Part shown: positions 12,739 through 15,700 of the stretch, one piece after another
Numbering within the stretch: position 1 is the stretch's first letter
Layout of the letters: the number at the start of each line of letters is the position of its first letter
Assembly: GCA_002633005.1 (NCBI GenBank)
Contig: NMRA01000076.1
Coordinates: 508,590 to 560,840, forward strand
Direction: 5' to 3'
Length of the DNA: 52,251 nt
Source: Phoronis australis
Taxonomy: Eukaryota > Animalia > Phoronida
Program-made: the position numbers and the translations under genes
Notes under the pieces: model-generated
What the model was told of the DNA's origin: nothing
Databases searched by the model: none
Seen by the model: the letters and a program-made list of their open reading frames with translations, nothing else

Positions 12739-15700
12739 ATGGCGACGCTAGTGAAGAGTGTTTGTCCAGTGATTGTTTTTTTGTCTTGCTTTTGTGTTGT
12801 AGCATGTCGCCAGTCTTTCAAGACAAATAACGAAACAGTGCCATTAGTTATTTGGCATGGGATGGGTAAGAAAATCTTAGAATTAATATGTTACTCCAAG
12901 ATATTTCATATTTTACAGAGGTGTTGTAAACTCGCTTCCGCTCTGTACTGTAGTCAGTGTTACCCTAGAGCTAGACGATGGAGCTCCAGTATAGTGTAGT
13001 AATAGCCGAGATCACCCTACCCGGGAATCGAACCAGCGACCCCCATAAAATTGGCAAGCGTGCTAACCATTCAGCTAATAGGCAATTGCCCGTTAGCGAG
13101 TAGCTTACAGAGGCTCATATAATTCACCGGAAGCACATCTACAACATTCCCCCCTTCGATCCTTACGGAACGGGCATGCGACCAGGAAGGTGAACACCAG
13201 GTTGTATCGCATACAGGTCATCAACTCCCCTTGGTACCTTTACCACCACAACACAGGTGAACACAAGGTAGTCTCTCATACAGGTCCTTGACTCCTGGAA
13301 CCTTCCACGCGTGCCGTCCCGAGGTCCGTGGGTACTAGTTGGCAGTGCCTCATCGGTAGATCATCCGTTTGCCCAACTACGCCATTTGTAGTAATAGCCG
13401 AGATTACCCTACCCGGGAATCGAACCAGCGACCCCCATAAAATCGGCAAGCGTGCTAACCGTTCAGCTAATAGGCAATTGCCCATTAGCGAGTAGCTAAC
13501 AGAGGCTCATATAATTCACCGGAAGCACATCTACAACATTCCCCCCTTCGATCCTTACGGAACGGGCATGCGACCAGGAAGGTGAACACCAGGATGTATC
13601 GCATACAGGTCATCAACTCCCCTTGGTACCTTTACCACCACAACACAGGTGAACACAAGGTAGTCTCTCATACAGGTCCTTGACTCCTGGAACCTTCCAC
13701 GCGCGCCGTCCCGAGGTCCGTGGGTACTAGTTGGCAGTGCCTCATCGGTAGATCATCCGTTTGCCAACTACGCCATTTGTAGTAATAGCCGAGATTACCC
13801 AACCCGGGAATCGAACCAGCGACCCCCATAAAATTGGCAAGCGTGCTAACCATTCAGCTAATAAGCAATTGCCCGTTAGTGAGTAGCTAACAGAGGCTCA
13901 TATAATTCACTGGAAGCACATCTACAACAATAGGCTTTTCGGCGAGTTATGCCACGCACTGACTAAAACATAAAAGTCATGCTGTTAGAAATACCTTTTG
14001 CACATAGAGGGACACCTTATGAGGCCGTCGATGTATTTAACTCCTTCCAACTCGAACAAATACTCCCGTTATCAAGCTTTTTCTTCGAGCAGTCCCTCAT
14101 TCAGTTCCCAAAATCGGTAACTTACCATTTTCACACTGTGCACGCTAGGGAATACAAACGTCATGCCACCTGCTGGTTGCAGAGATTATGGTTATTGTCT
14201 ACTGTTAACCAGGCAGTCTTTACCTTGGGTTTGCCTATTAGCCGGATGGTTAGCATGCTTGCTGGTTTTATTGGGGTCACTGGTTCATTTCCCAGGTTGT
14301 GTGATCTCAGCAACTGCTACAGAAGTGTTGTAGACATGCTTTTAGTGAATCACATAAGCCCTGTTTAGCTAACGCCAGGCAAATGCCTATCGGAGTATCG
14401 AGCTGTATGGTTAATATACTTTATACTGGTCAGTTTTATGGGGGTCGCTGGTTTGCTTCCCAGGGCCAGGTAATTATGGCAATTGGTGTAGATGGCAAAA
14501 TGGATATAACGATAAAGCACCAGCTGTTGCAATTTGTGATGAGCGAGTTACATTCTACAGTGCTACTTAACCACAGTTTTACAACAAGCCTAACAAAATT
14601 AAATCATTTTGATTAGTGAGGTCAAACATAATTTGCCTGTACTTATAACTGATCCTTGCAATTGCTATTTTTTCAGGTGACAGTTGCTGTAATCCCCTCA
14701 GTATTGGGTCTGTAATGAACTTCATCAAGCGTGAAATCCCAGGCATCTACATTCACTCCCTACAAATTGGAAGCAACATTGCTGAGGACACAACGAATGG
14801 GTTCTTGTTGAATGCTAACACACAAATTGACATGGCTTGCAAGAAAATCCAGAGTGACCCTAAACTTAAGAATGGCTACAATTCCATGGGCTTTAGTCAG
14901 GGTGGACAGTTTTTGTAAGTTTTGATTCTAGTGTTTTTTTCTAATGAGATGCGGAAATTACAGGTGTTTTTGGACTGGACACTGCTAGGTATTAAAGCAG
15001 GTATTAGGAGAGCTGACTTCCAGTGAACACTAAATCCTCAATGAATCACTAAATGAACTTGAACAATGGAGCTTGCCAGGCTGTCTCCTTTCTGGTATAC
15101 GAGTTGGGCTGATCACCACATTTGCCTACAGTCAGTTTTGCACCATACTGTGTTGATAATAAAGAACGTTAACTTTACTGTATCTGTCATAGACTATTAT
15201 TATAACAACGTAATTTTTGTAGTTTTCTATCTGTAACATCTAAAACATTGAAGTTTTTAAAATGTGTATAAGATTTCTCAGTATTAACATAAATATTTTT
15301 TCTCAAAGTATTTTTAATCTCTTGAAAAGTTGTCTGTGTTTTAATGTTTGGTGTCAAATTTGCAGACGCGCTGTTGCCCAGAGATGTCCCAGCCCACCTA
15401 TGTTGAATTTGATCTCTATTGGGGGTCAGCATCAAGGTACAGTCTGCCAAATTTTGCATGCACATCATTTTAATGTACTAGAATCAAAACTGTTCCAGAA
15501 ATAATTTTAACAATGCGTTCTGCATCATCGGTGTATAAGAATTCACAAAGATGTACTCGGGGCAACGGGCATTAGAACTGCATCACACTCTCGCCTTGTT
15601 TTATCTTGAATAAATAAGCATTGCATTCAGATTTTAACTCAATAGCAATGCGTAGCATCTGACCAAAATGTTGGTGACCAAAAGAGCAATTTTAGCGATA

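Follow-up and report, generated by a model that had tools for sequence, protein, structure and literature searches.

A tandem Helenus-type miniature LTR retrotransposon with tRNA-like promoter motifs in its LTRs, lying in the first intron of a PPT1 gene

Miniature LTR retrotransposons (TRIMs) with tRNA-like sequence in their LTRs have been described under the name Helenus (TRIMp3) (Kojima 2024, Biology 13:119, PMC10886601). The animal members combine tRNA-like LTRs with a primer binding site (PBS), a polypurine tract and 4-bp target site duplications (TSDs), and share their PBS types with Gypsy elements (PMC10886601). Separate origins have been proposed for the fish and the mollusc Helenus, and both Pol III transcription and a Gypsy helper have been inferred for the published families (PMC10886601), just as we infer them for the element described here. 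Two other groups of TRIMs carry a small-RNA promoter in the LTR: the plant Cassandra elements, with the type 1 promoter of 5S, whose transcription is reported as validated in the accessible part of PMC7215508, and Ajax, a 5S-type TRIMp3 of nemerteans, with 5S boxes, a tRNA-Leu primer and a 5-bp TSD (PMC10886601). Among the papers listed by our literature searches, one of them restricted to the years since 2019, there was no second primary paper on Helenus.

The element analysed here is a new family of animal Helenus (TRIMp3), i.e. of a kind already described in 2024. It lies in a stretch of 52,251 nucleotides, which we refer to as the window. An initial annotation of this DNA, made from the sequence, had pointed to Helenus/TRIMp3 as a known class that might hold a new family, and this placement is in good agreement with Kojima 2024 (PMC10886601). 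As far as the list of animal Helenus in that paper is accessible, the closest entries include Helenus-1_LiLo, Helenus-1_NGe, Helenus-3_PeMa, Helenus-1_CGi, LTR2_Lch and LTR-11_DR.

The element, a miniature LTR retrotransposon with no genes of its own, forms a tandem copy. It occupies positions 12995-13929 on the minus strand, where an LTR-I-LTR-I-LTR array of three 152-bp LTRs with TG..CA ends and two internal parts can be read off the sequence. The 5' LTR (LTR 1, 13778-13929) is followed by a non-coding internal part of 239 bp that contains an imperfect direct repeat of ~50 bp (internal part 1, 13539-13777), the middle LTR (LTR 2, 13387-13538), a second internal part of 240 bp with 3 differences from the first (internal part 2, 13147-13386) and the 3' LTR (LTR 3, 12995-13146). 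Pairwise, the three LTRs differ at 5-7 positions. The length and the TG..CA ends of the LTR had been given correctly in the initial annotation, but there are three LTRs, not two; the tandem had been overlooked, as had its place within an intron and the presence of further family copies in this DNA. The whole three-LTR array is enclosed by the TSD ATAG (12991-12994 on the left, 13930-13933 on the right), the 4-bp duplication that had been named for it, which does not extend to 5 bp. The longest stop-free frame of the element is 76 codons, and none of its 11 frames of at least 48 aa matches a Pfam domain, which bears out the earlier claim that it has no coding capacity. A single unit measures 543 bp (152+239+152), below the 1000-bp limit for TRIMs and, like Helenus, within the range of 311-1263 bp that is listed for that group (PMC10886601). 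All the structural marks of a TRIM are thus present: LTRs, small size, no coding sequence, a PBS and a polypurine tract, dispersed copies, fixed ends and TSDs. Folding of the RNA of one unit gave z=-2.68, with 2 of 100 shuffles folding equally well, which is weakly supportive.

The tandem sits antisense in intron 1 (12865-14677, plus strand) of the host gene for palmitoyl-protein thioesterase 1 (PPT1), 130 bp from the donor. The intron was delimited by a Pfam scan, which covered 357 of the 360 stop-free window frames of at least 48 aa, by tblastn and by spliced reads, with 138, 142 and 628 reads joining exon 1 to exon 2 across the element in the three RNA runs. PPT1 and a TMEM65-like gene on the minus strand diverge from a shared promoter region; their first exons lie head to head within 12182-12864, ~250 bp apart, and both are transcribed. 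We infer that the minus-strand first exon is linked to a TMEM65 exon at 1935-2093. A solo LTR of the family (11805-11956, plus strand, 94.7% identical to the middle LTR, TSD AAAT) is found in the first intron of the TMEM65-like gene, where it is antisense, as the tandem is in PPT1. Elsewhere in the window, broken reverse-transcriptase frames that look Penelope-like adjoin an assembly gap (49651-50671; PF00078, E=2e-6), and a near-identical stretch duplicated around N gaps (46196-47632; 99%, about 910 bp apart) is probably an assembly artefact.

The first PBS, TGGCGTAGTTGGCA (13762-13775, minus strand), begins 2 nt past LTR 1 and is complementary to the 3' end of tRNA-Ser(AGA). When compared with the start of a published antisense tRNA-Ser(AGA) probe, the sequence of which was taken from the accessible parts of PMC3299991 and PMC13478228, it agrees at 13 of 14 letters, with the remaining one forming a G-U pair; the earlier assignment to tRNA-Ser, with G-U compatibility, therefore stands. 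The second PBS (13370-13384) carries a 1-nt insertion. The polypurine tract GAAGGGGGGAA, which the initial annotation had also recognised, directly adjoins LTRs 2 and 3 and closes each internal part (13539-13549 and 13147-13157, minus strand). Measured against family depth, the mismatch to tRNA-Ser is private to this locus: in most family copies in the DNA reads all 14 PBS letters are complementary to tRNA-Ser(AGA), and at the second PBS two substitution-plus-deletion pairs, in which substitutions were assigned to deletions by their matching depths, make up ~7490 of the depth of 7587 in DNA run X1, both giving a perfect 14-nt complement. Within 13720-13777 (minus strand), 25 nt downstream of the PBS, lies a 9-nt arm similar to the 3' end of tRNA-Ser that can pair with the PBS, and the PBS could be masked by the resulting hairpin. 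Self-priming through this arm was rejected, because the arm is internal and the family copies match tRNA-Ser exactly. A PBS for the 3' end of a tRNA, a G-rich polypurine tract, a 4-bp TSD and many solo LTRs are all features that the family has in common with Helenus. The primer itself sets it apart: in the accessible part of the list in PMC10886601 a Ser(AGA)-type PBS is absent among the primers, and the Ser primers given there are of two other types.

The element belongs to a large dispersed family whose copies share the same ends. On one unit, 1243 contigs of DNA run X1 were placed. Loose ends gather at both termini of the LTR, from 27 contigs at one and 43 at the other, and their low agreement (0.37 and 0.36) means that there are many different insertion sites. 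Summed depth over the LTR, which is not to be read as a copy number, is ~10 times that over the internal part in X1, and the solitary 152-bp LTR is dispersed far more often than the LTR with an internal part. It had been proposed at the outset that other copies be checked for their ends and TSDs: the TG..CA ends are kept, and in all four resolvable insertions the duplication is 4 bp (ATAG, AAAT, GGGC and CTTC, the last two derived from loose ends in RNA runs with left and right sides paired by inference from read counts).

For the solo LTR, an allele without the insertion is available. A 1222-nt contig that covers 11957-12920 with 31 differences passes directly on to the left flank of the solo LTR and carries a single AAAT, which fixes the duplication at 4 bp and demonstrates insertion polymorphism; several variants of this allele are also found among the RNA reads of X8 and X9. 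The contig stops short of the tandem, and the empty-allele evidence thus covers the solo LTR. It implies recent mobility of the family. The 31 sites that differ in 964 bp (11957-12920) suggest a highly polymorphic host. Older copies are also present in the window. Two LTR relics of about 68-80% identity lie head to tail at 14170-14474 (plus strand) with a 4-bp spacer, and a second older pair with a 16-bp spacer spans 32305-34085 (minus strand), its upstream LTR being split by a 1.4-kb element. These pairs (4-bp join at 14170-14474, 16-bp join at 32305-32596) are possibly deletion derivatives or adjacent insertions. The inserted element (32601-34023) is bounded by 150-bp TIRs (91%), contains part of a THAP domain (PF05485, E=1e-7) and is likely a non-autonomous DNA transposon. 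In X1 another family copy shares 8 flanking bases with the tandem site (12987-12994), and the 3' flank of the solo LTR (11957-11965) is similar to the flank of the tandem site; a weak target preference of the family is possible, with two other sites that do not fit.

The tandem came from one progenitor. At 13349, 13598 and 13619 both internal parts agree and at least 99% of the family depth has another letter; at 13349 and 13619 the minority depth is ~47, and the contig matching the junction of this locus has about half that depth (24). All three LTRs of the tandem share a private letter at 13443. Because private variants are common to both parts and the TSD pair is intact, a single progenitor follows, and recombination between two independent insertions was rejected on the same grounds. 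Tandem arrays have been reported for the Helenus element LTR-11_DR (PMC10886601), and arrays of three and more LTRs are known from Cassandra (PMC10886601 and the accessible part of PMC7215508), where unequal crossover and concatenated cDNA are the routes discussed (same part of PMC7215508). For this tandem, changes counted by hand (10/456 versus 3/480, p=0.05; 5/152 versus 3/240, p=0.27) do not separate concatenated cDNA from a later unequal crossover.

The 3' half of the LTR had been said to read like a tRNA gene. The A and B boxes at tRNA spacing are indeed there, but a tRNA is not: ARAGORN finds 0 tRNA genes in the element, and Rfam, run over 12500-14500, gives no tRNA and no 5S at E<=5, with one chance scaRNA match (E=1.9). 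A functional tRNA in the LTR was rejected, the D and anticodon stems being poor and ARAGORN returning no gene; of the tRNA, nothing but the two boxes and part of the T arm is left. The family is in this respect similar to Helenus, in which the LTR has tRNA-like A and B boxes without a functional cloverleaf and most members lack a full tRNA. The boxes begin at LTR positions 70 (A) and 113 (B), with 56 nt preceding the tRNA-like part. By motif pair search, the A box of the 5' LTR lies at 13850-13860 and its B box, 43 nt past the A box start, at 13806-13817 (minus strand); the corresponding positions are 13459-13469 and 13415-13426 in the middle LTR and 13067-13077 and 13023-13034 in the 3' LTR. 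The window contains four A+B pairs spaced 25-70 bp apart, all of them in the three tandem LTRs and the solo LTR; none of 200 window shuffles and none of 5000 LTR shuffles produced such a pair, with a box consensus written down after the sequence had been seen. In all four of these young LTRs both boxes are intact at tRNA spacing (43 nt). Together with the 4-bp duplications of 4/4 insertions (two of them paired by inference), A and B motifs in a tRNA-like LTR belong to the structure that defines the animal Helenus. In the four older LTRs the A box is conserved at 39/44 positions (89%), the B box at 33/44, which is no higher than background, and the rest at 356/487 (A+B versus rest, p=0.053); the concentration of conservation on the two boxes that marks animal Helenus is thus borderline here.

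Between the boxes each LTR has a run of four T (13830-13833 in the 5' LTR, 13439-13442 and 13047-13050 in the others; minus strand), a candidate leaky Pol III terminator. It is the only run of at least four T in each LTR on the sense strand of the unit, with none in the internal part, and it is kept at 16/16 positions in the older copies. According to the accessible part of PMC3141230, mammalian Pol III terminators most often consist of four T, and termination is leaky and can be non-canonical. The run may instead be a leftover of the tRNA from which this part of the LTR descends and not a terminator. Its place differs from that in many listed Helenus, where, in the entries available, a T run lies 3' of the B box. 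Like Cassandra, as described in PMC10886601 and the accessible part of PMC7215508, the element is a non-coding TRIM with a putative Pol III promoter in its LTR, and like Ajax (PMC10886601) it is an animal TRIM of similar size with small-RNA promoter motifs in the LTR. In contrast to both, its boxes are of the tRNA type: a type 2 promoter in an animal element here, a 5S type 1 promoter in the plant Cassandra, and in Ajax 5S boxes along with a different primer and TSD length. No 5S-derived promoter, the hallmark of Cassandra and Ajax, was found in this element. Cassandra transcription has been validated experimentally; Pol III transcription of the present family is a prediction.

In the three RNA runs, of which roughly one fifth each was compared with the element, 458, 480 and 535 reads fall on it. 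Some two in three of these reads continue into unrelated flanks, and both strands are represented. The libraries are fully stranded and show no intronic depth over the stretch compared; they therefore appear to be poly(A)-selected, and RNA-seq of this kind neither shows nor excludes Pol III RNA. No pile-up of transcript starts or ends in the LTR was seen in these three poly(A)-like runs. The middle of the internal part is crossed by 62 sense and 26 antisense reads that need not be independent, and since such reads can stem from a few host transcripts, the sense bias was not taken as evidence for Pol III. RNA-seq appears to show host-transcript reads only.

Taken together, our preferred reading, which we hold with good confidence, is that of a tandem Helenus-type TRIM that Pol III likely transcribes from the LTR boxes and for which a Gypsy helper likely provides reverse transcription and integration. 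TFIIIC would bind the A and B boxes, and Pol III would initiate about 10-15 nt before the A box. Some of the polymerase would pass the single T4 run in the first LTR and terminate at the T4 of the next LTR, and in this more speculative step the RNA would be ~430 nt long and terminally redundant over about 40 nt. Cassandra RNA starts and ends inside the small-RNA-derived part, as far as the accessible part of PMC7215508 describes it, and we propose the same here. A Gypsy particle would then package the RNA, host tRNA-Ser would prime the minus strand and the polypurine tract the plus strand, and the integrase would leave the 4-bp duplication. LTR-LTR recombination would produce the solo LTRs, and either unequal crossover at one insertion or concatenated cDNA would yield the three-LTR array. 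The Pfam scan found no Gypsy helper in the window. A scan of viral contigs for the LTR end plus PBS returned 9 loci, none of which resembles the LTR or has a long pair of direct repeats, and these were treated as chance; metagenome scans with two LTR patterns gave 0 matches each.

The most serious competitor, which we nevertheless regard as unlikely, is an ordinary Pol II TRIM whose LTR took up the head of a tRNA-derived SINE, with the boxes as mere passengers and the copies made from Pol II or host read-through RNA. This would fit the RNA runs, which lack discrete Pol III-type ends and whose poly(A)-like libraries contain reads that cross the internal part at its middle (62 sense, 26 antisense), as well as the B box, which in older copies is no better conserved than the rest. 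It fits poorly with the four young LTRs each having two intact boxes at the distance found in tRNA genes, with the 89% conservation of the A box in older relics and with a 543-bp unit that has one T4 per LTR and none internally; moreover, the same box layout recurs across the published animal Helenus that are accessible in the supplement. Far less probable is a Pol III-transcribed TRIM with a BEL/Pao or Copia helper, or with an RNA end elsewhere than at T4: no helper has been found for this family, the PBS figure of Kojima has one BEL element beside the wasp Helenus (PMC10886601), and Pol III may terminate leakily and at non-canonical sites (accessible part of PMC3141230), but animal Helenus have 4-bp TSDs and a Gypsy-like PBS, whereas the Copia-linked fungal ones have 5-bp TSDs (PMC10886601). 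Finally, a tRNA-derived SINE or satellite-like tandem repeat merely resembling an LTR element, as the Pol III boxes, the mostly dispersed 152-bp unit without internal part and the head-to-tail relics with 4-bp and 16-bp spacers might suggest, is very improbable given the fixed TG..CA ends with no A-rich or simple-repeat tail, the 56 nt upstream of the tRNA-like part, such that the element does not begin at a tRNA head, the 14-nt PBS and polypurine tract abutting the repeats, and the constant 4-bp TSDs.

Within the Helenus group, the element represents a family new to Kojima's list, because six of its motifs are all absent from the accessible portion of the Helenus supplement (PMC10886601) and its primer type is unlisted there. 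The host, likely a marine invertebrate, is probably not a species in Kojima's lists either, because none of the 56 homologues compared, including those of Lineus, Lingula and two scallops, exceeds 73% identity to its PPT1, with Lineus longissimus the best; a quick tree leaves the window's protein unplaced.

A further similarity concerns the segment that directly precedes the A box. There, at LTR positions 39-66 (13473-13500 in the middle LTR, minus strand), a hairpin and a palindrome were recognised by eye. In many published animal Helenus, compared by eye and without alignment in the accessible part of the supplement, a YTAGC..GCTAR hairpin is followed by 13-15 nt with a palindrome and then by the A box, and by eye the layout in the present element is the same. 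In that part of the supplement the carriers comprise 13 fish-form hairpin-arm matches, the coelacanth LTR2_Lch, oyster and scallop families, and the nemertean Helenus-1_LiLo and Helenus-1_NGe; the module is absent from many bivalve families and from the brachiopod, ctenophore and wasp Helenus there. In the window's older copies it is no better conserved than background (hairpin 46/72, palindrome 34/45), which counts against it. The main text of PMC10886601 makes no mention of a hairpin or palindrome, and its Figure 2 may show the module. Its presence in fish, coelacanth, bivalve and nemertean Helenus and in this element hints at a single animal origin of Helenus. We tentatively suggest, as an idea with somewhat less than even chances, that most animal Helenus form one ancient lineage marked by an undescribed module (YTAGC..GCTAR hairpin, 10-12-nt palindrome, A box) that would serve RNA start, strand transfer or packaging, and that the leaky T4 sets the terminal redundancy of this family.

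This study adds to Helenus a recently mobile, polymorphic family with a new primer type and probably a new host lineage. Helenus have so far been without experimental validation, and a young family with a single terminator candidate therefore gives sharp predictions for the RNA ends; if our reading is true, this still-mobile family offers a tractable first test of how TRIMs with a tRNA promoter replicate. A single lineage marked by the upstream module would, if true, contradict the proposed separate origins of animal Helenus, and the module, if upheld by alignment, would alter the account of how the animal Helenus originated.
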